A DNA stretch of 62,966 bases, filler included. It is 19 parts of 19 records of this genome, joined end to end, with 100 filler letters (N's around TTAATTAATTAA, not from the genome) between each part and the next. Parts side by side here need not be neighbours in the genome. Positions count along the whole stretch, not along the records: positions 1 to 7,326 come from SRR11831580_2021; 18 more parts are not named here. One strand, given 5' to 3'. The notes beneath the pieces are model-generated. The model searched no databases and had not been told where the DNA came from. It saw only the letters and a list, made by a program, of their open reading frames with translations. Positions 1 through 28,895 of the stretch are shown in pieces. Each line of letters starts with the position of its first letter. Positions within the stretch are counted from its first letter, which is position 1. The position numbers and the translations under genes are program-made.

Positions 1-700
1 CCTTCTTCGCGTGGGGCAACAACGACATCACATCCCGCATCAAGTGACGATATCTGCTCACAAAAGGTGAGTATCCAGTGTAACAGAATGGGGACGATGA
101 ATGTACCTTTGGCTAATGCCTCGTGTCCCCAGCACCAGAACCCGCTCGAATTTCGACTTGGATGACGACGTGTCTTCGTCATCACGTTCGCTTACAGTAC
201 GCTTATTCTTGCGTTTGCTATTACCACTAGAAACAATTACACCGTCCATGATGCTGCAAAGAATGTACACACAAACGCAAGCACACTGCTTGGGTGGAAT
301 GGAGTTGTGTGTTCGCCTCTACAGCTCCTCTTCGCGAGTCGCGACGCACTGTGTGCCAGTTCGGTCACAATCGTTCCAAAACCGCTTCTTTGCCTTCTCC
401 CTGACAAGGGTTTTTCCTGACAACCACGCGAGAGACTCATTTTTTCGTCATCTTTGCAACTCCCATGCACTGTCTCAGTTCCTGTTCCAGCAACTGTGAC
501 GTCGACTACGCCCCCAGCTGGTGCCAAACTACCACAAACCGGTAAGCGCTTCATGTTTCAGACCGAACCGGCATTCTGCTGAATTTTGCTTGATGCGTTG
601 ATGTACGTGCAGTCACTGTAGAACTAAGCTGTGGGCGTTTTCTAACTCCGCATTGTATCCGCTCTTGAATCCTAGCTTCGCCCTGTTTCGACACTTGTGG

Positions 701-3700
701 ATGGGTGAGCAAGACGACGCACTGACATGGGAGTGCTGTTTCCCCGGCTGCACTGCCTACACTAGTGCTCTGTTCCCCACCACTATCGCTCAGAGAAAGT
801 GGGTAGAAGTACTTTACCTGCCTTCTGAGTTCGAGGCTCCATGTTCGGGAGCACTCTGCTCGAGCCATCAGATGGTGGCTCGCAAGTTGACCGGGGCGGA
901 TAAAAGCAGGCGCACCGAGGCATGGAACAAACTTATCAAAGATCTCACGGCTGCTGCTATTCAAGAACGCGAATCGGGGGGAGATGTGAGCTTGTGCATG
1001 GCAGCGCTCCGACTTGAGAACAACTGCGATCACTGGTTACTGGATGACTGGCGTCTATTTGTGTCCCTGGTGCTACATGGACGATCCTATCCCAGGTTTA
1101 CGTACTACTGCTCAATCCGAATGGCTTTCGAAATCGTTTTCGAGGAAGTGCTGGAGGAAGAGATGATTGCAGCGCCTGCAGTACAATGCGTCAGTTTGTT
1201 GCGACGGCTGGATGTTGGTACAGTTGAAGATGCGTCAGAGGGGATGTGGTATTCGCAGCGTGCGCGTTCATTCGTTCCGCAGTTGTTACAGGACAAATGT
1301 CTTCATCTGGCTACCCTCGTAGGGAGCGAGAATGCACGCAACGCTGGTCGTTGGTGTAAGTGGTTGAAGCGTTCGGGATTGTCGTGTTTTGAGGAGCGGA
1401 GCCACCCTCGCTCCAGTGTACGGTTTCTGTTTCCTCAGAACGTCAGCCACGACATCGTTGCGATGAACAGTTGCGTTGGGGATGATTGCGTTGCTGATGA
1501 TGAGGTCACGGTACAGCTGCCATCTGAGACACCGACATGGCTCAGTCTCGCGACCAACGTTAGAGACTGTCTCGATGTGGTGGCAGCGAACGATGCGGAG
1601 CTTCCACCGTCGCAGATGCTCTACTTTTTGAACAATGATATGTTAAGCGCTCTGCTTGCTGTTGTGGCCGAGCGCGGGGAGATTCATCGAATCATCGAAG
1701 AAGGACCTCGCGCGTATATGTCTGGGAATCTCAACAGGAAGCAACGGCGAGCGGTCCTGCGGGCTGGGACTATCGTCAGCGTTGCGCTGCAGCCAAAGAA
1801 GGGGCGAACTCCGTGGTTGCAGGACCGCGTGGGGAAGGTATTGTTTGCTCGGGGGAAGAGGAAGTCTCTGGCTTTTCTGCGCCAGTACGGCATCTCCAAC
1901 AGCTACTCCAAGCTGTTCACACGTCTACGGTTGCTTCGCGCAACGAGTCACGCGAATGTCACGCGCGTCCCATCTTCCTCCGCTCTGGGTTTTGCTACGG
2001 TGGATAACATTGACTTTGGCAAACCACTGGCGCTTGATCCTACGGCATCGCTGCACAAAGCTACCGCAATGTTCTTACAGCCGCAACCTCGTACGTTTCT
2101 TCTGTTTGCCCGGTGTGCGTGCGTGGGTGTTTATCTCTGTGTGTGCGTGGTGGTGTGTGTTGCGTGCATCTGGTTGGTGTGCGTGTGTGTGTCTGTGTGT
2201 GCATATGTTCACATGTGTTGTGTTTACATATGTGCACGTGGGTTTACGCACATGTGTGTTTTGCTTCGTGGCGTGCGTGCGCGCGGGTTCGTTTGTAAAC
2301 ATTTGAATGTAACCGACGTGTCTGTGTGTAGTTCCCTCGTCTGTCCCGGCAGCTGACGAAGCGTCCTCCTCATCGTTGCTCTCCGCTACGAACGCTGAAC
2401 CGTCACAGTCGATCTCAACAGTCGAGGATTTGTGGGAAGACATCGTGCGGTCTCATCTATCGAACGACTCACTTCCTTCATATGAACCGACAGGCGCACG
2501 CCTGCACGTGAATGCTTACAAAGCGTATGATGTGCAACCAAACACGTTCGATTCCGTGCGATCATTAGTGGCTGCGGTGAAGGAGGACATGGCACTCACG
2601 GAGTATCAATACGGAGTGATTGGGGCAGATTACGGGATATGGTATCGCCTGTGTGAGCTAAAGGTATGGAGTACTCTCTGCGACTATTCGTGCGTATCTC
2701 ATAGTGCTGACGTACTACATTGCACGGTTATATATGTGCAGCACTCAATATGTTCTCTAACTGTTTGGTTTTGTTCTCAGGACCGCAATCCCCGTGACTA
2801 CGGTTGGATGGTTCCCGTACTTGGCGATCTGCATATATTGAAAGCCGCCTTACCTGCAGTGTGGCAGCAGGTGCGCCGCATGTAATGTGAGTGTGGTGTG
2901 CATGTATCTCATCGTTGGTATGTATGCAGGTAAAGAGCATCGGTGGAGATTCGATATTGAGCCAGATATTCACACGAGGCCAAACCGAACGAATCACCCA
3001 AGCTCACGGACACGGCTTGATAGGTCTATCATTCGAAGTGCGTCACGGGATTCTGTTCGAGGTTATCTGTGTGTCTGTTTGTTCGTATCCATAACCTGTA
3101 TATGTTCGTGATTGTTATAGGTCCTGTGCGCGCTGCATGATGCACTGATGGCGCAAATGACCACGGATTACGCGGCTTGGCTCCAGAACAATCGCGATCT
3201 TCCTGACCAGTTGGACTCCCTGGCGGGAACCCGCATTTGGTTCCAGCCAGGGGTGCGCTTCCCAGTGGCGAGGAAGGCCCTCTCGGCTCAGCTTTCGGAC
3301 TTGGAGGCAATTGAGACGCTCAGCTGCGACCAGGCGGACGTGCTGGTGTGCAAGTCCGGCTGCCCGCAGCAAGCAGCATATCCGCGTCGCACTGTGACGT
3401 TTGAATGGTTCAGAGCGTCCGTCGCTGCGAAGCGACATCTTCCACTCAAAGACTTTTTGATGTGCGAGGGTAAGGGCGAATTTCATCTGAGAACGGTTCC
3501 CCAATACGCCGTTGTGGGGCTTGAGAAGATTGTGCAGGCACGGGGCCTAGCGGTGACGCAGTTGCGAGAGCCACGTTTGGGAGATCACATTCCACATACT
3601 GAACTGAGGTGTGGAGTCTATTGCTATACGCAATAAATATGTACTCGACTGTCTAATCTGGGTGTTGTATTGTGTGTGCAGCTTTACAGAGTGGGCCACT

Positions 3701-6454
3701 GCGGTGGCGTCTTCTGATGCCACGTTTGCGCTGTGGTACGACTGGTGTTGGCACTGGGTGTCCCCGCTGCGTGCGCTTCAACACGCATCACGCACAGGAA
3801 ACTGGGAGCTGCGCCTGGACGCGCTTTCCAACATGCTCCCGGCGCTGTATGCGTACGGGGGGTGCCACTATCAAAAAGCTGTGCCGGAGCACCTACGGCA
3901 GATGGCACTACTTCCCACGCAAGTCCTCAGCGCGTTCAGCACAGGGGCGTTCTGTGTGCAGCTTACCCACGCAAGTGTGGCGCTGGACACAGCTCATGAG
4001 TGTGGTGTGAACCTGATTTTGAAGCGCCTGCTCAAGAACCCGTCCGTATCCCAGCTGTTTTCAACGTGTGATTACGCACTGCCGCTCCTGGAGCAGGTGC
4101 AGCACGCTGAAGAGGCAAGCCATGTGGACGACCACGCCACCCGCAGTAGAGGACGGAGCGGTGAGCTCCAGAGGCGGTTGAGAGTCTGTGCCCTGACCAC
4201 GTTTCTGTTCAGACCCACATGTGCGACCGCGCGGCCGCTAATACATGTGGGCAACGGTGGAGCAGCGAATGAGGGCTGCGCTTCCGCCACAGCCTATGCA
4301 TGTGGTGACCTACGCCGCCGCGAGTCGCAGGTATGTCTTCGCTACTGATGTTTGCATGTCTTGATTTGTCTATATCCTGTTTAGTTTGCATTGCTATAAC
4401 ATATTGATTTCTGTGTATCTTGTTTAGCGTCTGTTTGGGCTGTCCGCAGAAAAGGTCACCCTAAAGCGATGGCGCTCGTTTCCGCGGATTTGTAGCAAAG
4501 AGTCGCCTATTCGCAAGGAGGTTAGCCTGGCTGAGAAACGAACCAAAACTGCAAAAGGTAGAGAGATTTGTATGGAGTTTTTGCCTCATTTCTGATGCGT
4601 ACACTGCCGTATGTGCTGTTTATACGCATCCGTTATATAGAGATATGGAGCGCCAAAGTAGAGCTTCTGCAGCAGAAGATTTCAGCTGGAGCAGTAGTAA
4701 CAGCAGGTGACCTCCGTGAACTTGTATCTACCGCCTTTCCCTTCTGTTTCACCTGGGGAGCACAAAAACACGTGTTTTACGACGTGCTGGCAGACGAAAT
4801 CGGAGAGATACCGTTGCACCACGGCGATCTGGACGCAGTTCATGCACTGGATGTGTTGCGCTTTCTGCACTCTGCACACGGCGCAACGTTCCGGGAGCTG
4901 GTATCAAACGCCGCGACGATCATGCTGCGCAACCGTGGGCACGCGTTACTGTGTGCGGACAACCCAGAATGGGCATTGGGTATTAAAACCCTAACGCAGG
5001 ATTTGCGAGACGTCGACGCAACGCCCGTGGAGGTCACTGCAGATGGACAGTACTCCGGTAAACTGGGGCGGGCGGAGAAGCCAGGCGTACTGCAACTGCT
5101 GCGCGAACACGTTCGGGCACTTCAACATGAGACACCACTCACCCTGTGTGGCTTTGACACCACCGGGTTACCCGAGTACATATGTACTCCAGACGGCGTT
5201 GCGGATGTCGGTGTTGCTTCCCCAATCACTGCGTACAAGCACCCGGAAGCAGATACAGGCATGGTGTACGCCGGCGTATGTTCAGCTGAGGCAATGAAGC
5301 TCCCTCTTGTACTTCATGCGAACGACACCGACGTGCTGATCATCGCCGCTCTGCGAATGCGAACAACTGCGCTGCGCATTTACGTTAAACGCGACGAAGA
5401 CACTGTGGTGGACATACGGGCTCTGACAGGCCAGATCGAGCAGCACGCTGTTTTCGCACGTTTCTCGGACCCAGTCGCGGTTGCTGCGTTACTGTATGCT
5501 GCAGCTGGGTGCGATTACGTGGAGAGCACACGTGGCGCAACACATCGCACATACATGAAGGGCTTCATTTCACACGCGGGATGGATTGGCGGGGCCACCA
5601 CGGACAGCGTATCTGCGCAGGTCACAGTCAATCCGGTATGGCGGGATTCTGAGAACGCACTACATTATGATCCCAATGCGTTGCGCCGCCTGTACATGGC
5701 CATGGTTGCCAGTCAGCCCCGCAACACGAAGCTGTTTCGCGATGCTTCGCTTTCCGATCGCATGCGCAGCTTTGCTACAACAGAAGAGCAGCTAGATCAC
5801 CTCCGCGATCTCATCAACATCCACTCCGAAATCGAGTATCAAGTTCCGCATACCTCAGCAATCGACCGGCATATGCTGCGCGCCGTGGCTGCGCTCCACA
5901 TTTGGCTCAGCACGCACACCGCGGAGTTAAGAATTCCGGACATCACACGACTTGGATGGTATCGCATTGAGCGCGGACTGGATCCGGAGTACCTTGCTCC
6001 GGAGGTCGCGGCACAGCAAGAGGCGTTAGTCAGCCCCGTCAGGTGCGGATGCGCTACAGGATGCGTTAGAAGATCGTGCGGCTGCGTCAAGGTGAACGCA
6101 CGCTGTAACAGGCGCTGCACTTGCAACAGTTGTCAGAACCGAGGCCAAGCGACCTCTGTAACTGCGCCGGCTACCCACGTGGACGTTACGAATCTGATCC
6201 AGTGCGAAGTCTGTCTCACCTGGAGGCAAGTGGACGCGCTGCCTGATGGCGCCGATGACCTGCACTGGAGATGCAGCATGGACCCCGTACGTCTCCCGTG
6301 CAGTGTGGTACGGGATACCGATGACCGCTGCGACTGCATCCTCTTGCCGATGACAGCTGAAGAAGAGTGGTCACAGGAGGAACAGTACGCATCCACGGTG
6401 GAGGGATCCGACGCAAACAGCAACGACCTGACCGATCTCCTCACCTCCCTGTAG
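701..6454 (+). mobile_element. AcademX-type DNA transposon gene (Academ transposase + XPG/PIN nuclease + Cys8/CXC finger, with added THAP-like and CW-type zinc fingers); element termini not defined
   Basis: Motif order typical of Academ: GFATVDNIDF (D1, ~2003), VIGAD (D2, ~2628), VPVLGDLH, SRTGNWELRLDALSNMLP...GGCHY, LDTAHE (E, ~3998). Then XPG-like HPEADT / NDTDVLII / AGCDY, then HMLRA...W...GW, then CGCATGCVRRSCGCVKVNARCNRRCTCNSCQN. No TIR pair found in the window. Confidence 0.8.
701..6454 (+). CDS. Spliced ~1667-aa transposase, 8 exons: 701-2090, 2353-2663, 2781-2870, 2930-3061, 3121-3608, 3682-4330, 4428-4557, 4641-6454
   Basis: All seven introns are GT...AG and phase-compatible. The exons sum to 5004 nt with no internal stop and join track ORFs 653..2356, 2376..2885, 2891..3094, 3148..3636, 3611..4348 and 4568..6454. 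First in-frame ATG is at 701; an upstream exon cannot be excluded. Confidence 0.8.
2091..2352 (+). repeat. TG-rich low-complexity intron (intron 1 of the transposase gene)
   Basis: GTACGT donor at 2091, imperfect (TG)n/(GTGC)n runs, CAG acceptor ending 2352. Confidence 0.8.
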
Positions 6455-6477
6455 AACGGGACTGATTAGTCCCGTTC
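6454..6477. other. Perfect 10-bp inverted repeat / hairpin overlapping the transposase stop codon
   Basis: GAACGGGACT-GATT-AGTCCCGTTC. Confidence 0.9.
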
Positions 6478-7326
6478 GAGCGAACTAAACATAAAACAGA
6501 CACACAAATACAGGTTATAAGATGCGCAGCCCAGAGCACGAGTGAATAAAGCACTAAGAACAAACTATCACCCATCACGTACCACGAATATCAGGGACTT
6601 TGCTTAGTGGTGGACGATCTGCAGCAAATAGCAATGCCATATCAATCTATTACCGATGCATGCTGTGAAAACGAACAGCCGATATGTCACCTTCATGCTG
6701 TTTCAACGCGAAGTAACCACTCGGACAACGACACGTCTGCACGATCACAGAATTAGAAGAAGAAGCATCGATCGTATTTCTGAACTCTGCAGCACGTCAA
6801 GCACACCAATGATGCAGCACAGAGGGGATGCGTTCGATTGCGCGAGCACACGTACCTTTTTCTAAGACCTGCCATCTCGCGCATGATCCGATGCGCACGC
6901 AGCGCAGAGAGCGAGCGTGACAGGCAACATAAGAGAAAACGTGCATTATACACCATTAGGACACTCAGAATGGCCAGGTTTCCTACAGAAGCATGACGCA
7001 TCCCATTACAACGCCACTGTGAGTACTGCAATTCCTTTGAAGACAAGCTCACTTACCTTTTCTGAGACGGTGAACACTATCATCTGAGTCCGGTAAGACG
7101 AAGTTCGTGGATGGGCGAGTTATAGGATCTCGGCAATGGCAAGAGATGAAGTATCCGAAAAAGCGGCAGGACATAGTCTGAGCATGGGGTATCAATACTT
7201 CAACATATGTCTTCTGGAGAACAAGAAGCCGCCACGATACAGCATGGCAAAGTGAGCCAAAATTGAAGGGTGGGAGAAGCGTACCTCGCTATAGAGAGGA
7301 GTTTGGCGGGATTCTGACCGAACTGC

Positions 7327-7426
7327 NNNNNNNNNNNNNNNNNNNNNNNNNNNNNNNNNNNNNNNNNNNNTTAATTAATTAANNNNNNNNNNNNNNNNNN
7401 NNNNNNNNNNNNNNNNNNNNNNNNNN
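7327..7426. other. Artificial contig spacer (44N-TTAATTAATTAA-44N); first of 18, the others starting at 10012, 12809, 15270, 17641, 19817, 23542, 26532, 28796, 30951, 33504, 36138, 40438, 45009, 51246, 53485, 57431, 60572
   Basis: Identical 100-bp block. The palindromic 12-mer places TAA stops in all six frames, and genes are truncated at the spacers. Confidence 0.99.
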
Positions 7427-10011: not shown

Positions 10012-10262
10012 NNNNNNNNNNNNNNNNNNNNNNNNNNNNNNNNNNNNNNNNNNNNTTAATTAATTAANNNNNNNNNNNNNNNNNNNNNNNNNNNNNNNNN
10101 NNNNNNNNNNNAAAAATAATAAGCCTGCTTACTTTACGCTTGCTGCAGGAAGGAAGTAGAAAATCTTTACGTTTTTGCATAAAAATCAGGCGAACTGTCA
10201 TCAAACTGCCATTTGTGCACGCTAACAATAACGTGAAAACAGCTATCTCCCGGGGGCATGCT

Positions 10263-12908: not shown

Positions 12909-13873
12909 CGCCCCGCAGCGCACACACACAGCCGCACCGCCCGCTCCTGTGAGCGGAACCACAACCATTGTGGATGCGATGCAGGTGGACTGGCGTGGTG
13001 CGGCCAAGGTCTTCCCGCAGAGCCTCCCTGTGCTGCCTGTCATGCAGCCCTGCATCGTGCTTGTGGCGGAGGTGTGTGGGTGTGTGTGTTCGCAAGCCGC
13101 TTGTGTGCTCTGTCATTCGCTGTGTGTTTGGGGTGTTTGTCTCAATCATATCTTCCCAGTATGGCGTCCGCCCGTCTCCTGCGTCCTCTCTCTCTGTTTT
13201 TTTTTCAATCTCTCTCTCTCTCTCTGCATTCTCATGTTATGTGACCCCCGCAACTCTGTCTGCAGGTGCGGCTCATGATGCTGAGCCAGACACCACTCGA
13301 CTTTGATGTGCACCTGGTGATGCTCGACTCGAAGGGAACCGAGGTTATCGTATGTTCCTGTGTGTAGCGTGCGTGTGGAGCGTGGCAGTGAAGGATTGTG
13401 TGTCCTCGGTGTCGCGCCTTCTCTCTCTCTTTGTGTTTCCCCGTTGCGTGCGTGTGCTGGGCCTAACAGTTCCTGGCAGTCTTCCGTCTCACCATCGTTG
13501 TTTCAACGCCTCCTCAGACAAGAGCGAGCCGTCATCAACCGTACGTTGATCTGCTTGCGCTCATAACGTATTGTGTGCTGTGTGGAACGCTCAGGTGGTA
13601 GGTTTCTTTCTCGCTCCGTCCTCGGCTTTCGCATCACTCCATACATCCATATTTATCAACACATCCACACCCTGTCTGCCCCTCTCTCACCCTCCTCGCC
13701 CCATCCGTGCAGTGTACATGCAATCGGTTCCGGGGGCAGAGTTTGTGCGCAACGCTGTGGCGCAGGCGGCTCAGGGTCTGACCGCAGTCAAGTGTGGCGT
13801 GCTGCTGTGCACGACGCCGCAGTCTGCGGGGGGATGTGTGTGTCAGGATCTAGTGGTCCTGGGCCCGCGATAA
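12909..13873 (+). CDS. 3' end of a spliced eukaryotic gene (exons 12909-13071, 13266-13349, 13480-13540, 13713-13873), possibly RMI1 C-terminal OB-fold
   Basis: Phase-compatible GT-AG introns. Peptide FDVHLVMLDSKGTEVISSVSPSLFQRLL...VAQAAQGLTAVKCGVLL follows the hydrophobic spacing of RMI1_C, but identity is low. Confidence 0.4.
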
Positions 13874-14413
13874 AACCCACCGTTGTTGTGTATTTGGTGT
13901 GTGAACCAACACCATCCCGAGTGAACATTTGTATTGTTCTAAGCCACGGCCGCATTTCATGTGTACAACTGATGAATTTTGGTGTGCAGTTGCTGTCTCA
14001 GAGCCGCACAGGCACAACCTCCCCCCAATAGCCGACACAATAATCCCGATTTACATCTAACTTGTATTCATTCATCAATAACTCATCGGAGGCGCATCCT
14101 CTGCACCGCGATACTTGTGTATTCAAACAAAGGCGAAAAAAAGAAGAACGCGGATTACAGCATAATCCCAACACAAACACACAACAAAGACGGCAGCAAA
14201 AGAACATGCTTGAATCCCGCGTGTACAATTGGCGGGTGTGATATAGTGCGCCTTTCGTAATCTTGAGTGCTACGTGTTGGCAAAGCTTCCACGCGGAAGA
14301 GTTCATCTGTGTATTCCTGTGTGCGTTATGCGTCACGGTATCAGCAGCTGATGCACACGAATGAAGGACAAAAGTATACGGAAACGCCGCACAGACGAAA
14401 CAAGATGCCCGCT

Positions 14414-15164
14414 TCATAGACCGGAAGACTTGGCCAAATAGTCAATGTCCACATCGGACAGGCGCACATCCTTCCGATGCAGCGGCTCCAGCGATATGCC
14501 CCCCATACCGCCCTCGTTCAACAACATCGGGTGCGCATTGCGTCGCTGCTCTGCGCTGCGAATCGACTCCAGAATAAAATCCTTTGTCAGAGTCTCCTCC
14601 AGGTCACTCTCACTCTCTGTGCCCGTCCGCAGCAGGGCCAGCCGCACCAGCACGGGCACAGTTTCGCAGAGAAGATACACACACATGAGCCACAGTTCCA
14701 CCACACACTGCGGGAGCGTGCTGTCGAACCAGTGACTGTTGCCCCATATGAAGAAGGTGACCGCATAGAGAATGAGCGCGATGCAGGTTACGTATGCGAC
14801 CACCGATGCCTACACACAGAGTAACATCGACACACACACGTACAATGGGTGCGTGAATGAACAGCGATATGATACACGACACTCTTGTCAGCAGGCTGGG
14901 CTGTGTATAGAAACAATGACTGCGCATGACAACATGTGAACATCGGTTACACAGAGACGTATCGGAGAACACGAGGTGGCTCTCTGACACTTTACAATGA
15001 CACTTTATAACGGCACTTTACAGGGACACGTTACAATGGCGTACCCTCGATGTCCGACGATTTTTGACTGGTAAGCGGCTCAGGAACCGCCGGAGCAGCA
15101 TCGCAGTAACAAACACACCCAGATTCATCAACAGGAGCGTGGCCACAAACAGCATATGTGCGCC
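14414..15164 (-). CDS. Last two exons (15164-15045, 14809-14414) of a TOM1/THH1/GPR137-like multipass membrane protein
   Basis: Spliced peptide ...AMLLRRFLSRLPVKNRRTSRASVVAYVTCIALILY...VYLLCETVPVLVRLALLR resembles the last TM helices and the E-x-x-P motif of the TOM1/THH1 family. Confidence 0.6.
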
Positions 15165-15199
15165 CTACACAGAGCATCATCAGTGAGAAAACACGGGCA

Positions 15200-15269
15200 C
15201 ACATACACACACTCTCACTCACACTGACACACTTACTCACACTCACTCACTCACACTCACTCACACTCA
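15200..15269. repeat. (CACT)n/(CA)n microsatellite at contig end
   Basis: Tandem CACT/CA units running into the gap. Confidence 0.85.
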
Positions 15270-15395
15270 NNNNNNNNNNNNNNNNNNNNNNNNNNNNNNN
15301 NNNNNNNNNNNNNTTAATTAATTAANNNNNNNNNNNNNNNNNNNNNNNNNNNNNNNNNNNNNNNNNNNNCCAACAAAACAGTCAGCCGTTCAACA

Positions 15396-17442
15396 TTAGA
15401 CGCCTGCACCCAACGGGAAGTGCGCCACATGCTCCACATCCGGCGTCGCGGCCGACTCCAACAATAGATGGCATTCACGGAATGCACGATCATGTATCAC
15501 CTGCATACCATGCGCTTTGTACCCAACCGGGGTAACAATTTCCGGGGAGAACAGGCGCCGAGCGGTCTTCGCTACTCTCTCGACAGGCGTCCCCGTCGAG
15601 ACACTGCGCTCCTCGGGCATATCCGCCACGTCAAAGTGGATCAGCCAAGCTTCTTCAGCTTGCACCGCACGCGCATACTTGTCCATGGTCAGCACATGCT
15701 CGTGAACTTTTGCTTTGCTATCGCTAGCAACGAGCTCGATGATATAGCGTTTGCCGGTGTCCGAGGTCAACAGAATATCGCCCCGCATTGAAGCGCTCAT
15801 AGACGAAACAGATGGGACCATCTTCAACACGTATGTCAGAATGCATGCGGTACGATCAAAGGTTGCTTCTCGTACCTCGCTGTCACCGAGTGTGCTCGGG
15901 GCCTCTGCATCCTCACCTTGGCTCTGCAAATCGAAACTACAAATCAGCAACAAACATCACATGACTCACACAAACGGGATTCGCACCTGAGGTCGTTTGA
16001 ACTCGCATGCAATCGTCACAGAATCTGGCAACCAGCTACGCAACAGCCCGGCAATCTCAAAGTGATAGGCGTATTCATGCCACACAGAGATGTACGGCGG
16101 CCGCGATCGACGCTCTTTGTGTGACGTCTCCAGCGCGGCTACCATGTCAGCACGGCTCATGTAGCGCAATGCGGTGAGCAACAGCGTTCGCATGTTCAGC
16201 TCATTGCCCAGCAGCGGTGGTGCCTCAGGCGGCACACTACGGCGGGACGTTGGGACCACATGCGCCATGAGAATAGACCGCACGAGCGGACATGTCACCT
16301 CAAACGCTAGCGGTCCCGTGACGTCCTCTGCTTCAAGGTCCATCCATGATGATCCATGAAATCGCAGAACACCCTCCGCAGCTAGAAATTGCGCCGCCGG
16401 CATGTACTGCATGTTCACAGTGACTGGTCCGGGAGCACGCAGAAAAACGGGCAATAACGCACGCGCAGCCGAGGCCTCCGGTGTGTTGGCGATCAGGTCC
16501 TCCACCATCTTCATAATAGTCGGATACCATAGAGGACCACTCGTCAACAAATGTGCCTTCTCCTTTGCCCACAACTCCGCTGTGACTGCACGATCCTCTT
16601 TCACCAGGCGGCGATCGATGAACCGGTAGCAGATCGCAAGCAATCCAGGATGCCCATAGGTCATGTCCCCAATATCGTCGACAATAGCAGCATCGACAAC
16701 ACATCTGCGACGCTGGACATACTGTGTGTGGTAGTCAGCACGTTGTGCGTCAGTGAAGAACGGGACCTGAAATGATTCCCGAACATTGAAGGGAGAGGAC
16801 ATCGCCGACAGCTGCTCATTGAACCACAGGACACTGGATGAGCCGACACCCACAAAGCCCTGCAACACGTGCTTCCCGCGGGTGGTGTGCTTGATGGTAC
16901 GGAGAGCTTCCACAAGCATACTCTCCTGTATATTGCGCGGCAGGTCGTACAGTTTGTCGAAGTCGTCAACAAGCAGCACCACGCGACGATTGCCAAACGC
17001 CCCCGCATTCCGCGAGCTCAGCCACTGTCGGAAATCCGACGCGGTCTGCCACGGCTCCGGGATTGTGTCAGCAAGGTCAGGGTTATCCTCGCAGATGCTG
17101 CCGCTCATAGCTTTCCAAAAATTAGGTAACGATGAATCCACCTTTGGCAACGTGAACCTACAACACATGTAGAATTATGGCTGAGAATGGCGACATAATA
17201 CGATCGACAACTTCCGTACATCACGACGCAAAAATCGCACAATTGCTCTGAAAGCCGGAGAATGCGAGTGGTTTTGCTGGCAGCCCGCGGTCCATAGAGA
17301 AGAACAAACGGTACAGGGTCGGTCGTGCGGTGAAGAACAGGTAACAGCGTTTGCTCATTGTCGTCGGCGACGTCGACGTACACATAGGTGTCTTGCTCGA
17401 TCGAAGCGAGGCCGCCACCGAGATAGATCACCGACTCCACTT
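15396..17442 (-). CDS. Crinkler (CRN)-like effector: P-loop NTPase + PD-(D/E)xK-type nuclease domain; spliced, N-terminus not resolved
   Basis: FVLLYGPRAASKTT (Walker A variant), VVLLVDDFDKL (Walker B), SPFNV...PFFT, TYGHPGL, then HEYAYHFEIAGLLRSWL, RGDILL...YIIELVA...HV...KYA...AEEAWLIHF. GT-AG introns at ~17219-17158 and ~15986-15924 join the track ORFs in phase. Confidence 0.75.
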
Positions 17443-17740
17443 CTGTAAACACTTGTCAGAAAGGCAAAAGCACCGATGCACTAGAGCATACTCGCATGGC
17501 TTTGGCGTGCAAGCAATAGCGCCACTGAGGTCGCAGTCCCCGGCAACAGGCCGTAAACCTTCCTCAGGCGCTCATCGACTTTGTCAATGCCGCACATGAA
17601 CACCCTGCACAGCTCTCCCCAGTTGGCCTCCATGTCGACCNNNNNNNNNNNNNNNNNNNNNNNNNNNNNNNNNNNNNNNNNNNNTTAATTAATTAANNNN
17701 NNNNNNNNNNNNNNNNNNNNNNNNNNNNNNNNNNNNNNNN

Positions 17741-18870
17741 GACTACAAGTCACGCACCTCCGATGTGACAAGGTCCAGGAGGCTGAAGTACTCTAGCAGA
17801 CGCGGAAGGCCCTGCTCGGCGTTGCCAACAATCAACACAGATACCTGCACCTGATGAGAGAGTGTTTGCACATCAAAAACAGGACCACGACGAGAGAACA
17901 CAGAGTGTAACACGAACGAGCGCAAGCGTTTAAACATATATGATTTGGTTCACGGTGTGCGGTGGCCGCGTGTGCCGTGTGTGCAGCGCGGTTCGTACCT
18001 GCGTCCCAGAGAGCAGACCCCCTGTCTGTTTGGGCGCTAGAGTGCTATCGTAGATCACAGGAGCACCAGTTGCAGCGTCGATGCTCAGCGTGCACGAGTA
18101 CACTAGTGTCTGATCCACAGCTGCACAACAACAACGCAGAATGCACTTGAGCATGCTCAGTTTTCAAGTCGGATTCTGAAACGCATACTGGTGGTGATCA
18201 CGTGCATAGCTCCGTGGCCGATGAACTGCTGAGCGTATCTGTTAACGAAACCATGAATAAGCTGCTTTCAGGTGTGATACTTGAAAACTGGATAGGGACA
18301 GCACTGACGAGGACGTACAGTAACACGCCCTTAATTCCCACGCCATATTTGCCCTTGCTCTCTCGCGGGCCGCTTCCGTCTCTCTCACATCCTGCCGTAG
18401 TCGCAAAAAGGCGCCCGAGGAGCGAAGCGACAGCTTCCATCGGAATGCCAGAGCCCGTGTCCTGAACTGTGTAAACGAACCAAACATTGACTTGTAAACA
18501 CAAAACGGGACTTCAGTGGTCTTGACTGCTACCTTTGATGCTATATAGGCCGTCGCTCCCGTGCGGACACTGGATCTGATGGTCATCCACCCTCGAGATG
18601 AAGACCTCCACTTCTTTGCGCAGAGATGCGCGGCACGCATCAAGGGAGTTTTCTAGTAACTGCCAATTTTGACGTCAGCAACCAATACAGTATCCCTTTG
18701 CAAAATTACCTCGCGCACTGTGGTGTACATGGCGTCTGATGGTGATCCAAACCCCGCTATTTCCAAGTCTTGAAAGTAAAGTCAGAAAGAGAGAATAGCG
18801 CGTTTGTGTTTGCTGTACTTTCCGCCATGAATTGGGAGCCATTTCGATGATTTGGCTGTACAAGTGCCAT
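17741..18870 (-). CDS. TOP6B: Topoisomerase VI subunit B-like GHKL protein, N-terminal part (exons 18870-18819, 18768-18710, 18659-18533, 18466-18252, then ~18109-17998 and ~17844-17757; 3' truncated)
   Basis: Spliced: SQFMAENLEIAGFGSPSDAMYTTVRELLENSLDA...LYSIKVQDTGSGIP...LLGRLF...KGKYGVGIK...CTLSID...SGTQVSVLIVGN, collinear with plant/archaeal Top6B motifs. Confidence 0.88.
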
Positions 18871-19194
18871 GGTTGTCCAGATTGATGTTCAAAGGAGCGG
18901 GTTTTGTCGCGCGACTGCTATTCTTCCAAAGTTCTTCACAACCAGAACATGAAAACTGCGCTCGAATCGCGAGAAACAAGCTCATGAGTCATGCGGCTGT
19001 CTGAGTGTCAGAGACATTGAGGTCACGGGATTTTTTCCTGAAAAGTCACCTCACCATGCGTTGCACTTTGCTGTGCTGCACTGTTTGTCAATCACTATTT
19101 CCCAATTTGCGTGTCTGCTCCCAGCTTACTCCTCCTAGCCCGCAGTTGAATTATATAACCTTCGCCACACTCAACGTGCTTGAAGTTTGGAACG

Positions 19195-19816
19195 ATGCCG
19201 ATCTTCACTACCAAACTAAAAGCTTTGGAATATTCTCGCTGGGATAATTTCGATATCAATAGTACGTCGTTCTTTCACGTCCGACTCTATACCGACATCC
19301 TGTAGACTTGTCGGATGTGTTCGCTCTCGTATCTTGGTTAGAGAAAGCGAAAATTCACCATTATCATGACACGAACAACGATTTGATGACTTACTCACCG
19401 CGGTGGCATGCGAAGCTGGCAAAGGTACACAAGTGGTGTGCGTGATCACAGAGTCCCTTCTAACACGCACCACAGTATTTGTCGGATCTGGGGTGTCCGC
19501 GAGCGTACGGGGACCGCATGGATTCGGCCACGCTGACGGCCGCAGTTGACTGGCTGCTTTCCCACGCTGTTTCGTTAGAATTCCGTGAGAAATGTATGCG
19601 TTTGTATCATGCATGGGCACAGCGTGGCGTGTGTGCCTCTCTCCCTCTTATTTTACTCTTTGTTGCACGTTATTCTCTATCGGTGTACTTCCTGATTTGC
19701 GAAATCTCGGACGGTGAAGTGGGGTGAGACAGTGATGTGTGTTCTTATTCGTTTGGTATCGTACGTAGCGGAGGAAATCAACACGGCGGCGGCGCAGACC
19801 CTTGTCTTCGAGCATT
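19195..19816 (+). CDS. RTRAF: RTRAF / CGI-99 / C14orf166 homolog (tRNA-ligase complex subunit), 5' exons, 3' truncated
   Basis: Spliced: MPIFTTKLKALEY...LVSWLEKAKIHHY...W...KYLSDLGCP...AVDWLLSHAVSLEF, matching the family pattern FxxKLxALxY / WLExxKIxHY / KYLxDxxCP / IDWLLxxAVxLEY. Confidence 0.88.
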
Positions 19817-23641: not shown

Positions 23642-24654
23642 GTTCTTGAAGAGCACCAGGTTGATCTTGTCGCCGATGAAGACAGGGTCGCCTAACAAGG
23701 TCAACAAAAGAACAAACGTCAGCAACGATGGTGGGGGAATGAGAAAAAAGATGCGCGTACCCTCATTACGGGCCTTGGACCCGGGCACGATCTTAAAGTG
23801 ACAGTGTGTGTCAGCATGCGTCAGCACGAACGGGCTGGGGCGTCGTTTGCTGCTGGAGCCGGCTGTTCAACACAAGAGGCACACACGTGAGCAGAGCAGG
23901 CACACTTACATCGCGCACAGCGAACTGTCGTTTCATGTCATAGCACGCGCAATATGGAACGGGTGAAGATTGAGACGAGGACGTACTGCTTCGGTCAAGG
24001 GTCATGAACTGGTGCGACGCCATATCTCGGAGCATGATGGCCTATACAACACACATAAATATAAACAACTACACAACAACGTACACACGCATACACACGC
24101 GCACGCACAGACACGCATACTATGCTCGCACAATAGAATCACATACATAATCTGCGCACATACATCGCCATGCACTCAGAACAGCACTGTGCATACCTGC
24201 CCATAGGTAACACGCTTCGAACGTTCCCGAATTTCCGTATCTATATTCGCTTTGCGCTCTTCTTCCATATCCGCCTCTGCGTTTTCACCACGTCCCCACC
24301 CTATACGCTCACGGTGTTAAACGTGACTCCACTTCGGGACAAGGAGGACATGTCGTACCAATGCCAGTTTATCAAACTTGAGCTTCGGAACAACCTGCCA
24401 CACTTTGTTGTGCACGCTAGCAAGCGGTTTTCTAGCGGTTGTTGCTTTCGCTACAAGTGTAGCGTTACGAATGACAGTGGACGTGCACTCGACGTACTTT
24501 GCTCATGATCCACGACAGGCTCCTGGAATGCGCACACGATATTATCTAAGGAGCAAAGTACTGCATTGGGCTCTCCCGATCCTGCGGCACTCAGCGAGAA
24601 CAGCACTGAATCTCCAAAATGGAGAAACAGGTCCTCTTGCTGGAATCCGCTCAT
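23642..24654 (-). CDS. Inositol 1,4,5-trisphosphate receptor-like channel, N-terminal exons (3' truncated)
   Basis: Spliced: FLHFGDSVLF...VWQVVPKLKF...EEERKANIDTEIRERSKRVTYGQAIMLRDMASHQFMTL...HFKIVPGSKARNEGDPVFIGDKINL, collinear with the IP3R suppressor domain (FLHIGD, YGxxIQL, RxxGDxVxxGDK). One junction near 24300 is out of phase beside a homopolymer run. Confidence 0.78.
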
Positions 24655-24964
24655 TTGCGGCCCTCGAAAGCCGGAAAGCTTTTAAGCACAAGCGTGAATT
24701 CCTGCACGACAGTCCGAAGAGATGATAGCTTTGTGTGCGGCAGCAACTTCACCACACAGTCTGACACCAATCTCCTCCGAGTCCGTCTGACACCTCTTCA
24801 TCAGACAGTCGGACTGCAGCCAGCGTGGCTCAGTGCCAGGCAGCGCGGGAATTTCCGCGCGTACGATCGTTTCTGGTTTTTGGGCTCATTTGTTTTGCTT
24901 TGTTCAAGGAAATACTTAGCCACTTTCTGTGGATACTATTTGTGCAGAGCCGCAGTTCGCGAAG

Positions 24965-25971
24965 ATGCGTGCAGCGTCGTATAAAGTTCAAATCGCAATC
25001 TTGTACCTGTCTACGTTAGTGGAAATCGTTATCAATGGAGTGTTTGGAACGGTTGGAATTAGTCTGGTTGCAGTGATTGCTTTGACCATGTACGAGAAAT
25101 CTTTGCATCCGAACCGCGTTCTCAAGCCTTTTGCAGTGTTCAAATAGCGGCATTATTCTCCAACTTTGTGGTTTGCTATCTTCTGTTGGCACGCACATGG
25201 TTCTTTGAAGCTGGCTTGTTCGGTCTTCTTCTCTCCAAGTTCAAGTGGTTGTTCATCGTTTCGTTGGTGAATTTGATTTTCGTCGGCGGCATGCGCGGTG
25301 CCTTTATTGTACGTCTCCCTGTTGCATACTGTGTGTTTGTGTCCGAAGAGACTATGTATCGCGCGCGGTGCTCTCTCTCTTCCAGTGTGCGTGTGCGTGT
25401 GTTTGTCTGTGTATACCTGCGTGTGTATGCGTGTGCGCAACATGCATGTGCTTGTGTTTTGCGTGTCCGTGTGTTGCTGTGATCGTGGCAGTGTACCTTT
25501 GTGTGCATGCCTTGTGTTGTTGTGCCCTGTTTGCGCTGTTCCACATGGGCTCGTTGTGTTATCTCCGCCGCACGCCTTCTTTTGGAGATGGCTGATTGGG
25601 TGGGATGTGCTAGGTGTTCATGTCGTCATCGAGCTACTCATTGACAACTACATGGAGCAACGCCGTCATTTACATCCTTCTTCCGCTGCAGAAATTATGT
25701 ACGTGGAGGAATACTCTGTGTGTATGTGTGCGTGGCGTTTTGGTCTGGCGGCTGTGCGTATAGCAGCATATATTTGAATGATAATGTTGGGGCGACGGCA
25801 TCCCAGACACCCACCCGATTCCCATTGTCGTCGTGCTCACATACAACAACACCGATTGTAGGGTCCATTGTGTATTATCTCACCATACTCACACTGCTGC
25901 GGCGGATCGGGTCCTCCAAACTGTACCGGCCCACACACGAGGAGGTGGACAGAACACTGCGAGGGCGTTGA
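24965..25971 (+). CDS. TMEM138: TMEM138-like ciliary membrane protein (spliced)
   Basis: TWFFEAGLFGLLLSKFK resembles the TMEM138 core (TFVFQAGLxxLLxxKFK); C-terminal YY...RRIGSSKLY; TG-rich introns. Internal exon boundaries not all resolved. Confidence 0.75.
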
Positions 25972-26828
25972 TGCTGTGTGTGTGCGGTGGTGGTCATGGA
26001 CGGGCTCAACTACAGGGGCCCAGCTGCGTGGCAATGGTTACTGCCACATCACTCGCTGGCTGTCGGCGAAGCGGCCGCGCTCGACCTCCGCAGCAGAGCC
26101 CGTGAATGTAGCTGCAGTCCGTTCCTAACTCACAGCGTAGTGTATGTTGTGCGTACCGCGGTATGTGGAAGAGAGATATGCGCGCCCTCAGCGTTCATGC
26201 TCGCAGCTGCGTTATGACTGTGTCAAACACTGCTGCGAGGCAATGAGATGGAGTGTGCGGGGATTAGTCGTCCCATTCGGACGGCTGCGAGGGGTTGAAG
26301 TCAACCTACAAGACAGTAATCGTTCAGGTGAGATTGCAGTGCGGCGTTCTCAGAGTATGAAGTGGCGGGATATAAACCAGCGAGCACGACATAATATGCA
26401 GCATGCAATGGATGTTACATAAGGCAACATCCCACATATCTTCGCGCATTGCCCGTGAGTCACGCGCACTACTGCAACAACACAGCATTTGAGATGGAGG
26501 GGTCACTTGCGTACCCGCTTGTCGTATACAANNNNNNNNNNNNNNNNNNNNNNNNNNNNNNNNNNNNNNNNNNNNTTAATTAATTAANNNNNNNNNNNNN
26601 NNNNNNNNNNNNNNNNNNNNNNNNNNNNNNNCACACACACACACACCCACATACACACACAGAGCGAGGAACATCATGGGCGCAATCGTATCAGAAGTTC
26701 AAACCACCGACCAGGACTGGTCCTGTAGTGCCGACTCATAGTCACATGCGATTACGTAACAGAAGAAAGCAATTCATTAACAGACGGGCAAAAGCGCAGA
26801 CAACAACACAGCAGTAGCGGGAACGTAC

Positions 26829-28610
26829 GGGCTGATCTGGACCGCTGTGAGCCATATTCGGATAGAAAGATCACGGTTGGCGTCATCAGACCGTTCCTGC
26901 AACGAACACACACAAACACAAATACACGCATGACCAGCCGTTAATGATAGCACAAGCACAATGACTACACATGCACAGAACACACAAAAATAAAATGGTG
27001 TATCTGACAAATCGCGCAAGTATTTCAGCTTAGATGCAACCGAGAACGCACCACAAAACCACCGCAACCATCACGGGGCACACTCATTCATACTGAAAGG
27101 AACCAGCACCACACACCAACACGCATCACCCGGTATGTTCGCTTCGCATACAATACACACATGAACACATATGCTGTCTAAGCGAAGAAACACATGACGT
27201 ACCGAGGCGCTGAGACCCAAGAGTTCGAGTGCGAGCAAAATGCGCTCCGGTTGTTGGAGTTCGTCTTGCAAGTGTGCAGACATGTTCAAACACTCACCGA
27301 TCAATTGCTACACACACACGAGGATTCTCGTTCATGAGCGGAGCAACGTGGCAAAACACAAAGACTCAACGTACACATTCAGAGACGGAAAAACACAGAG
27401 CACACACTGACCTGGGAACAATTACTTCAGAATCTATGTGTACCTCTACGGAGAGAGGGCGAGCCGGGGCGGCGTGATCTGTACTGAAAAGGCGTTCCTG
27501 CGCTTGAATGATGTACAGAGGGCCGTTGAAATCTACGCGCTCACAACAACAGAGAACGTTAAAAGTAAGACAGAGCAAGAAAGATACACACATACGACGG
27601 ATAGATATATGTATGTGACGCAGCACGCGCACAGTGCAGCCACCAATGCTCCCAATTCACCAACGAAACAAACGCAAACAGCTTGGCCGCAGATCTAACC
27701 CTCGCAACTCCGCATGTACACGCACATACACACACACAAACAATCGTCTGATCATACCACTCAGCTGGGCAGCGTCTCCACCACTTGCAATAGCGGCAAG
27801 CTTCCCAATACTAAACAGCGTCTTCTTGCGTGCGACCACCGTGTCCTCTGCCTGTGCCAGCCGCTTAAGCGTGTGGGAGGCAGAACTGAAGTGGGCCGGC
27901 GTAGAGGTGAAATTACCCACCGCAATATCGTGAATCCTGACAAAACAGACAAACGAGCGCGGTGTTAGAGGAAGGAGCAGAGATACGAAACAAGAAACAG
28001 TATAGCTGCTGTAGTGAGAGGAGCGGGGACTCTACACTATATACGGCACGTTGATAACGCGTTGAAGTGCAGTTTAGGTCCACGGCGCACCAATGGCAAA
28101 CACTCAGATGCAGTTCCTATCTATATATGCGAGCGTACCATGCAAGGTCCGGGTGATTCTGCAGAAAACGCGACAAGAAATCCCACAGAGCCTGTGGCAG
28201 GGAGAGCAGCTTCGCACGCAGCCCTGTAGACGAACAGCGTCAGCAGATAACGAAACGCGTGCACAGATGAAGAGGACAGCACGCACACGAATCAGCTTGC
28301 AAACAAGTAAAGTGTCCATTCGAAAGTGCAGCAGCCAACACAACACCACACTGGCAAGCGCTTGCAGAGACCCGACTGATGATAGCAAAGCACACATTCA
28401 CACAGAACAAAACACAAACACATATCACACAAACACAAACATAAAACACAAAGATGACACCACGAAACGTAAGAAAACATACCGTTCTTGAGATACCACC
28501 GAAACGCCGCGTCCGCGAACTCATCTCCATAGGCGCCAATATATCGTTGCAATGCCGTCGGATCCCCAGATTGTTCGCACAGCATGGTCAGCGTATCGTA
28601 ATCACGGTAC
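26829..28610 (-). CDS. NUP133: Nucleoporin Nup133, internal exons of the C-terminal region (boundaries approximate)
   Basis: YRDYDTLTMLCEQSGD...LQRY...FADAAFRWYLKNGLRAKLLS...LSRFLQNHPDLAWIHDI...ASHTLKRLAQAE...RKKTLFSIGKLAAIAS, collinear with metazoan Nup133. Confidence 0.88.
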
Positions 28611-28895
28611 CTACACAGAGGGACATATATCACAAATCATCGGAAGTGAGACTCAAACGATGAGGTGTGCAAGGGGTTGGGAAGAACAATCTGAAAACCA
28701 TCGAATAAAACATGAGGATGGATGTACACAAAGGAAAGCGGGTCCTACGCCGCCACACTACACTAAGACACACACACACACAAACACACACACACNNNNN
28801 NNNNNNNNNNNNNNNNNNNNNNNNNNNNNNNNNNNNNNNTTAATTAATTAANNNNNNNNNNNNNNNNNNNNNNNNNNNNNNNNNNNNNNNNNNNN

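Follow-up and report, generated by a model that had tools for sequence, protein, structure and literature searches.

We analysed a stretch of 62,966 bases (hereafter, the window), which is no single locus and consists of 19 contigs of 2–7 kb each joined by N44-TTAATTAATTAA-N44 spacers. The first of these contigs (contig 1, window positions 1–7326, GC content 0.535) carries on its plus strand, at 701–6454, a gene that, as the best explanation of the evidence taken whole, probably encodes a real and intact transposase of the DUF6589/AcademX type, 1674 amino acids (aa) in length. The family and its architecture are already known; the contig-1 gene adds an intact and very divergent copy, possibly with two further modules. 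The preliminary description, made from the sequence alone, had proposed the AcademX domain set, and that set recurs here in order: a predicted DDE core, then a complete nuclease of the Rad2/XPG/FEN type, and last a Cys-rich finger. The features of the gene are as follows.

701–6454, plus strand: whole gene from ATG to stop, eight exons and seven introns, 1674 aa (splice model, path-length control, 217-bit profile match)
701–2090, plus strand: exon 1, aa 1–463, ending in phase 1, with a THAP-like C2CH pattern and DNID (D435/D438); 3' junction crossed by the family alignment
2332–2663, plus strand: exon 2, to aa 574, with GAD (D563); homologs P0006, P0005 and P0027 align over aa 574 without insertion
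2781–2870, plus strand: exon 3, aa 575–604, with GDLH (D590, H592)
2930–3061, plus strand: exon 4, aa 605–648; the family-consensus alignment covers junctions 604 and 648 (score reached by 0/300 shuffles)
3121–3608, plus strand: exon 5, aa 649–810.7, a variable helical insertion region; junction 810.7 crossed by P0005, P0128 and P0027
3682–4330, plus strand: exon 6, to aa 1027, with RTGNW at 848 and LDTAHE at 912–917 (D913, T914, H916, E917); profile domain 3, 89.6 bits
4428–4557, plus strand: exon 7, aa 1028–1070.3, predicted from splice signals and frame only
4641–6454, plus strand: exon 8, aa 1071–1674 and the stop, with the nuclease, the CXC finger, the zf-CW-like module and an acidic tail
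734–871, plus strand: possible THAP-like finger, aa 12–57 (Pfam THAP as top match, scoring 13.7 bits where the cut-off is 23.9; E = 0.11)
1955–4075, plus strand: DDE/RNase H-like core, aa 419–942, DUF6589-related and broken by introns 1–5 (profile domains 1–3; model of homolog P0170)
4763–5947, plus strand: Rad2/XPG/FEN-family 5' nuclease core, aa 1112–1506 (AlphaFold2 model, structural superposition)
6041–6142, plus strand: CXC (tesmin/TSO1-type) nine-Cys finger, aa 1538–1571 (A1 profile against the LIN54 CXC domain, E = 2.3e-6)
6194–6307, plus strand: zf-CW-like module, aa 1589–1626 (Pfam zf-CW at 21.6 bits, where the cut-off is 27.5; E = 2.2e-4)

At the level of the sequence, 701–6454 was confirmed as a real, intact eukaryotic gene with eight predicted exons. 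When spliced by script, the exons total 5025 nucleotides (nt) and 1674 codons with zero internal stops, and the seven introns, which measure 241, 117, 59, 59, 73, 97 and 83 nt, are all of the GT...AG type and phase-compatible. Translation of this predicted model bore out the claim that one stop-free protein runs through seven canonical introns, with two corrections to the earlier account: the protein has 1674 aa rather than about 1667, and it is assembled from seven stop-to-stop frames, not six open reading frames (ORFs). Intron 1 is open in the frame of exon 1, and therefore the first ORF appears to extend to 2353; the same intron contains, at 2100–2300, a GT/GC-rich stretch of low complexity with imperfect direct repeats (families D1–D3). 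Introns and exons differ in composition, with T at 0.34–0.49 and GC at 0.33–0.51 in the former and T at 0.22 and GC at 0.56 in the latter. As a control for chance, we determined the longest stop-free path obtainable with at most seven GT-AG introns of 40–300 nt, which reached 5994 nt on the plus strand, compared with 2409 nt on the minus strand and 1868 ± 213 nt (maximum 2679) in 30 shuffles. Alignments with homologs cross five of the seven splice junctions (aa 463, 574, 604, 648 and 810.7). There is no insertion at 463 (domain 1 of the profile alignment) or at 574 and 810.7 (P0006, P0005, P0027 and P0128), and junctions 604 and 648 are crossed with gaps, at a score of 58 against 28 ± 5 for shuffled sequences, none of 300 of which reached 58.

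Every motif that had been read from the unspliced sequence (DNID, GAD, GDLH, RTGNW, D-x3-E, the EAD-DTD-GCDY series and the Cys-rich block) is present in the spliced protein. DNID lies at residue 435, GAD at 561, GDLH at 589, RTGNW at 848 and LDTAHE at 912–917, followed in the C-terminal part by EAD at 1273, DTD at 1299, GCDY at 1360 and the Cys-rich block, with nine Cys, at 1539–1570.

A hidden Markov model (HMM) built from 48 long family members matched the spliced protein with 217 bits (E = 1.9e-68 in a one-sequence search) in four colinear blocks, aa 419–478, 535–603, 802–942 and 1268–1582, and 46 of 51 newly found family members matched it in phmmer. The family was reached through exon 8, which gave 355 matches at E ≤ 1e-3 and 8 at E ≤ 1e-10 among 1.84 billion representatives; the top match is a CXC-repeat protein, and the real relatives are 22–37% identical, with identities of 17–31% to the homologs in the alignment of relatives, A1. 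Nine of the 25 matches of at least 600 aa align colinearly with the contig at both 3617–4186 and 5066–6241. DUF6589 (PF20231, Pfam gathering threshold 27 bits) was detected upstream of the common C-terminal region in 3 of 16 matches scanned, two above the threshold and one below, and the DUF6589 scores of P0006, P0027, P0170, P0175, P0180 and P0189, all of them colinear with the contig-1 protein, range from 37.5 to 59.8 bits. Searching with the DDE portion of P0005 brought up 53 proteins, 43 of which carry a precomputed PF20231 assignment, with UniRef names such as 'Tesmin/TSO1-like CXC domain-containing' and 'DUF6589 domain-containing'. All 19 that are named by organism come from animals (Antedon, Holothuria, Amphiura, Mytilus edulis, M. 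coruscus and Sycon), and P0128 is a Branchiostoma protein. An Atlas search with exon 6 gave no usable match.

The animal DUF6589/CXC proteins (Mytilus, Holothuria, Antedon, Amphiura, Sycon, Branchiostoma) share their domain order with the contig-1 protein, which has counterparts of the family motifs DNxD, GD...GDWH, RSGNW and DEAHE, of the nuclease motifs EExD, DxD and GCDY, and of the nine-Cys finger. It differs from them in being an outlier in the tree and in having GDLH for GDWH and DTAHE for DEAHE. Within the family, P0175 is without the DNxD block, and extra N-terminal domains occur, NADAR in P0006 (2252 aa) and a DUF4097 'toastrack' in P0180 (2048 aa). Transposases of this family seem to pick up accessory modules freely.

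The fold of the DDE core was modelled on the homolog P0170 (1109 aa), using a 28-sequence alignment, with a mean predicted local distance difference test score (pLDDT) of 76.5 and a predicted template modelling score (pTM) of 0.75. In this model DNxD (109/112) lies on strand 105–114, the invariant GD (359) comes right after strand 354–358, G-D-W-H follows strand 380–384, and D-E-x-H-E (611–615) starts helix 610–625, past a long helical insertion. As modelled, the arrangement corresponds to that of a DDE transposase of RNase H-like fold that carries an insertion domain. Comparison with 48,161 PDB representatives by VIA-align returned 13 chains at Z ≥ 8, among which the non-nuclease matches are the Drosophila P-element transposase (Z 10.1, 333 residues aligned, root-mean-square deviation (rmsd) 5.8) and Hermes (Z 9.6), with SIV integrase (Z 8.6) and ISCth4 (Z 8.0) further down and, below Z 8, Tn5 (7.3), other integrases and RAG1 (6.4). 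The RNase H fold expected from the motifs was thus recovered on the P0170 model and extended to the contig-1 protein by homology. The contig-1 protein retains D435/D438, D563, G589-D590-x-H592, D913, H916 and E917. Like the P element (of the THAP9 type) and the hAT transposase Hermes, the family shows a large, wholly helical insertion in its RNase H-like core ahead of the catalytic Glu, and the P element also carries a THAP-type N-terminal finger, as the contig-1 protein possibly does, judging by a weak match. A PDB profile search gave no match to P or hAT at the sequence level, and, unlike them, the contig-1 protein has D-x-H in place of C/D-x-x-H and is fused to a nuclease.

The nuclease could be modelled directly. 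An AlphaFold2 model of exon 8, built with a 45-sequence alignment, reached a pLDDT of 79.2 and a pTM of 0.76, and Foldseek retrieved 20 PDB matches at E ≤ 1e-3, those listed all being XRN1/2, EXO1, XPG, FEN1 or Rad2; Foldseek E values for the nuclease core ran from 4e-5 to 3e-3. By VIA-align, model residues 41–434 superpose on EXO1 chain residues 2–312 (Z 16.9, rmsd 3.6, 254 residues aligned), with lower scores for FEN1 (Z 15.2), XRN1 (14.3), XPG (13.4) and GEN1 (12.8). The FEN1/XPG-type PIN fold anticipated for this region is therefore present, and since residues 41–435 of the model superpose on the whole EXO1/FEN1/XPG core, we conclude that the nuclease core is complete and extends beyond an XPG-I fragment. 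Across the Rad2/XPG family (EXO1, FEN1, XPG and GEN1) and XRN1/2, the entire catalytic core superposes at Z 12.8–16.9.

Acidic residues occur at seven expected motif positions of the Rad2/XPG family: D1141, D1177, E1273, D1275, D1299, D1301 and D1362. The first six are putative assignments from motif context, and D1362 alone is tied to a named catalytic residue, EXO1 D225. It belongs to the GCDY of the family profile, which, together with the H3TH stretch, aligns with the EXO1 segment that holds D225, the residue mutated in deposited D225A structures. Identity to Rad2/XPG nucleases is just 9–14%, no PDB sequence matched the isolated nuclease domain at E ≤ 10, and, in contrast to those enzymes, the contig-1 domain is embedded in a transposase.

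The Cys-rich finger that had been read near the C-terminus stood up as a nine-Cys CXC block at aa 1539–1570. Its Pfam TCR score, 18.1 bits, is below the 23.5 cut-off, and the nine Cys are nearly invariant in alignment A1; a PDB profile search with the family alignment A3 retrieved the LIN54 CXC domain alone. Of the two possible extra modules, the zf-CW-like one, downstream of the finger, has pLDDT values mostly below 65 in the exon 8 model, and zf-CW was not seen in Pfam scans of 20 different homologs. At the N-terminus, a C-x3-C ... C-x2-H pattern can be read at aa 13–56, within the possible THAP-like finger.

With fairly good confidence, we assign the gene to the Academ(X) type of transposase, by domain order and folds and not by comparison with curated Academ proteins. 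Kojima, in 2020, is said to have described AcademX as a transposase with an XPG nuclease and a Cys8 finger and to have given a list of hosts. The finger goes by the name 'Cys8'; the contig-1 family conserves nine Cys. We know of no superfamily other than Academ for which a transposase, an XPG nuclease and a Cys finger have been described in a single protein. The domain order and the fold of each domain match published AcademX, which likewise has one long protein with a DDE transposase, then an XPG-type nuclease and then a Cys-rich finger. According to PMC10045372, AcademX elements encode a nuclease and have target-site duplications (TSDs) of 3–4 bp, whereas AcademH elements encode a helicase and have TSDs of 9–10 bp. 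No helicase family was matched by the five main ORF pieces of contig 1 (E ≤ 1) or by the eight ORFs of its flanks (E ≤ 10), and AcademX has none either. The gene, at about 5.8 kb, also fits the size of about 5.6 kb given for Academ elements in PMC10294476, where these elements are reported as expanded in bivalves. AcademH, known from animals and fungi, presumably has the same DUF6589-type DDE core, to judge by the richness of DUF6589 in fungi and the wide occurrence of Academ there (PMC5751038), but it encodes a helicase, whereas the contig-1 gene has a nuclease and no helicase match. The contig-1 protein departs from AcademX in its great divergence, the extra zf-CW-like module, the possible THAP-like finger and a Thr in place of a near-invariant Glu.

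Two circumstantial links tie DUF6589 to Academ. The named homologs are rich in Mytilus, and Academ is expanded in bivalves; likewise, DUF6589 is enriched in a rust fungus (bioRxiv 10.1101/2025.10.24.684071), and in fungi Academ reaches its highest abundance in Pucciniomycotina (PMC5751038). As for hosts, a 2015 survey gives Academ in animals only (PMC4438587, Table 3), fungi having been added later (PMC5751038), and the literature on 'Academ-1', among the matches listed, concerns animals, one fungus or one plant.

Several results weigh against the reading of the gene as an intact AcademX-type transposase. The Academ assignment runs, circumstantially, via homologs that bear Pfam DUF6589, and the literature searched contained no paper that equates DUF6589 with the Academ transposase. 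The separate exon pieces matched no significant Pfam family, and no DUF6589 at E ≤ 1. The RNase H-like fold of the contig-1 core is inferred through the model of P0170, whose transposase matches, for a model of 1109 residues, have Z of about 10 and rmsd of 5.8–7.2; Foldseek on the same model gave, among the matches listed, nucleases only, none of them at E ≤ 0.001, and no transposase at that E value. The second position of D-E-x-H-E, which is Glu in 46 of 48 family members, is occupied by Thr914, a change that may have impaired the DDE site. No significant homolog alignment was obtained over introns 6 and 7 and exon 7, where 127 of 300 shuffles reached the observed score. No second copy or close relative of exon 8 was found in the metagenome contigs or the genome contigs, and the sole base past the candidate right terminal inverted repeat (TIR; see below) does not fit a TSD of 3 or 4 bp, in that it differs from the base that opens the 3- or 4-bp word preceding the left TIR. 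Finally, any role of the nuclease in transposition is one that we infer by analogy only.

Contig 2 matches E. coli chromosomes at 100% identity (pepN-ssuBC), and contig 1 has no match among 5,426 E. coli genomes; the host is a eukaryote whose contigs are mixed among E. coli contigs, and taxonomic claims made from the window need care. Five further contigs have a non-bacterial look (12909–15269, 15370–17640, 17741–19816, 23642–26531 and 26632–28795), and their 57 ORFs gave only three Pfam matches (AAA_16, RLL and TMEM138), all below threshold. The ORFs concerned are the following.

25063–25479, plus strand: TMEM138-like ORF (Pfam E = 1.1e-4, 23.3 bits against a cut-off of 27, below threshold)
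19464–19724, plus strand: RLL-like ORF, for RNA transcription, translation and transport factor (Pfam E = 4.7e-5, below threshold)
15399–17455, minus strand: three successive ORFs of 116, 402 and 186 aa, with no Pfam family except a weak AAA_16 match (E = 8.2e-4) in the first

For the TMEM138-like ORF, the public collection contains a single protein at 78% identity, P0206, which itself bears PF14935, and this suggests that a neighbouring contig carries a eukaryotic gene; the RLL-like ORF is a further apparent sign of a eukaryotic contig, and the three minus-strand ORFs are possibly a single interrupted gene for a STAND-type NTPase. TMEM138 is a ciliary protein, and animals possess it too. The suggestion that the neighbouring contigs belong to a flagellated protist, though possible, gained no support: the matches obtained were the subthreshold RLL and TMEM138, both found in animals too.

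It is quite possible, if short of probable, that the contig comes from an animal or from another lineage in which AcademX is already known, in which case the element would be an ordinary, though divergent, AcademX copy and would bring no news on host range. Such a source accords with the organism-named relatives from the P0005 search, 19 of 19 of which are animal, as is P0128 (echinoderms, Mytilus, Sycon and Branchiostoma in all), with the nearest Atlas clusters, which are from Mollusca and Arthropoda, and with the occurrence of RLL and TMEM138, weakly matched on the neighbouring contigs, in animals; animals that were fed or colonised by E. coli would likewise bring E. coli contigs. On the other side stands a tree made with FastTree from 38 sequences and 533 columns, with a midpoint root and no outgroup, in which all named animal sequences form a clade that excludes the contig-1 protein; this protein sits on a very long branch next to P0029, itself without relatives in a word-indexed search. 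Neither this position nor the best identity of 31–37% outside the CXC repeats, among the 1.84 billion representatives, nor the very short introns (59–241 nt) is decisive.

Its ends and copies bear on whether the transposase is that of a mobile element. A check of the flanks for TIRs and TSDs, as had been proposed, yielded one candidate TIR pair of 24 nt and, next to it, a base that suits no TSD of 3–4 bp. The two arms are as follows.

357–380, plus strand: candidate left TIR (best inverted match between the flanks, pair I4)
7302–7325, minus strand: candidate right TIR, ending 1 nt before the end of the contig

The arms match at 20 of 24 positions, the first 11 exactly, a score reached by 8 of 300 shuffles, and would bound an element of 6,969 bp; the right arm stops one base short of the contig end, as expected from an assembler break at a repeat boundary. 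As for copies, the nearest genome compared, G001 (99% complete, 44% of 31-mers common), had no match to exon 8, and the homolog P0027 had no relatives in the metagenome contigs.

These results leave some room for another reading, which we regard as rather doubtful: that an Academ-like transposase was domesticated and gave rise to an immobile host gene, with the XPG-type nuclease and the chromatin- and DNA-reading fingers serving a host function. It would account for the Thr in the D-E-x-H-E helix where 46 of 48 relatives keep Glu, for a lineage-specific zf-CW-like module not seen in the 20 homologs, for the very long branch, and for a frame that is intact over seven introns in a gene with no second copy found and with TIRs that are candidates only. 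It is opposed by the retention of the remaining DDE positions and of all seven acidic positions of the nuclease, and by the 24-nt candidate TIR pair, whose place at the contig end fits a break at a repeat boundary. Active eukaryotic DNA transposons, too, usually have intact introns.

An origin in a DDE superfamily other than Academ, for example an unnamed one related to P, hAT or Kolobok, with an XPG-type nuclease acquired by an independent fusion, is unlikely. The best structural neighbours of the P0170 core are indeed the P-element and Hermes transposases, a G-D/E-W-H motif follows the second Asp in the family, and the Academ link goes through DUF6589 homologs rather than curated Academ proteins. 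However, to our knowledge, the three-part fusion belongs to Academ only, and a single residue, not two, separates the D and H of the motif. The published record points the same way: AcademX encodes a nuclease (PMC10045372), the bivalves and echinoderms among the named hosts fit the bivalve expansion of Academ (PMC10294476), and DUF6589 in a rust fungus (bioRxiv 10.1101/2025.10.24.684071) parallels Academ in Pucciniomycotina (PMC5751038).

That the spliced frame is an artefact, whether of a pseudogene in decay or of open frames strung together by chance, is highly improbable: the lack of homolog support for exon 7 and of significant Pfam families in single exon pieces is set against a stop-free path of 5994 nt (minus strand, 2409 nt; none of 30 shuffles above 2679 nt), the sharp contrast in composition between exons and introns, the colinear 217-bit profile match and an exon 8 that is predicted to fold confidently.

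If the gene is an AcademX-type transposase, its parts suggest a division of labour. The zinc fingers would bind the element ends or chromatin; the DDE core would nick the ends and insert the 3'-OH ends at closely staggered positions of the target, so that TSDs would be short; and the fused structure-specific 5' nuclease might, by analogy, cut the complementary, non-transferred strand at the flayed junction. With the second strand cut by the nuclease, excision would, on this proposal, amount to full double-strand cut-and-paste. Tn7 offers a putative functional analogy: TnsA and TnsB divide the labour (PMC3627910), and TnsA would correspond to the contig-1 nuclease as a second nuclease that acts on the 5' strand beside a DDE enzyme. 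TnsA, however, has a restriction-enzyme-like fold and is a separate polypeptide, whereas the contig-1 nuclease has an unrelated fold and is fused.

Academ is among the least studied superfamilies of DNA transposons. We know of no Academ member that has been tested biochemically. The fused domain emerges here, in the model, as a complete Rad2/XPG/FEN-type nuclease, with a predicted RNase H-like core nearest to those of the P element and hAT, and an intact, compact copy makes testable the cooperation of a structure-specific 5' nuclease with a DDE transposase. More speculatively, and with considerable doubt, the host could be a ciliated, non-animal protist whose AcademX-type lineage, itself deeply divergent, gained both a zf-CW module that reads histones and a THAP-like finger, and replaced one nearly invariant Glu of its catalytic helix; the protein would then be either active, with chromatin-guided integration, or a domesticated, chromatin-targeted XPG-type nuclease. 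Were this so, a protist lineage, active or domesticated, would carry Academ beyond animals, fungi and red algae, and a protist host would be a modest widening of its host range.

Among the remaining features of the window, minus-strand donor-like signals (GTAAGT/GTACGT) had suggested host genes in the flanks of contig 1 (1–320 and 6780–7326, both on the minus strand). These candidates were dropped: Pfam searches were empty, and the stop-free path was no longer than in shuffles. The peptide of an ATG-led ORF in the 5' flank somewhat resembled a Brix-domain N-terminus; Pfam gave nothing, and the idea was dropped. The spacers lie at 7327–7426, 10012–10111 and onward, and over the rest of the window (7327–62966) most contigs are E. 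coli-like. Typical gammaproteobacterial Pfam families were matched by 16 of 26 long ORFs of the other contigs. The E. coli-like contigs contain a GAPES1-GGDEF protein, a XerD-like integrase, a gyrB/parE-like gene, AcrB, NrfA and an AmpC-like beta-lactamase, and the sole match in an Rfam scan was the E. coli small RNA GadY, at 41965–42077.

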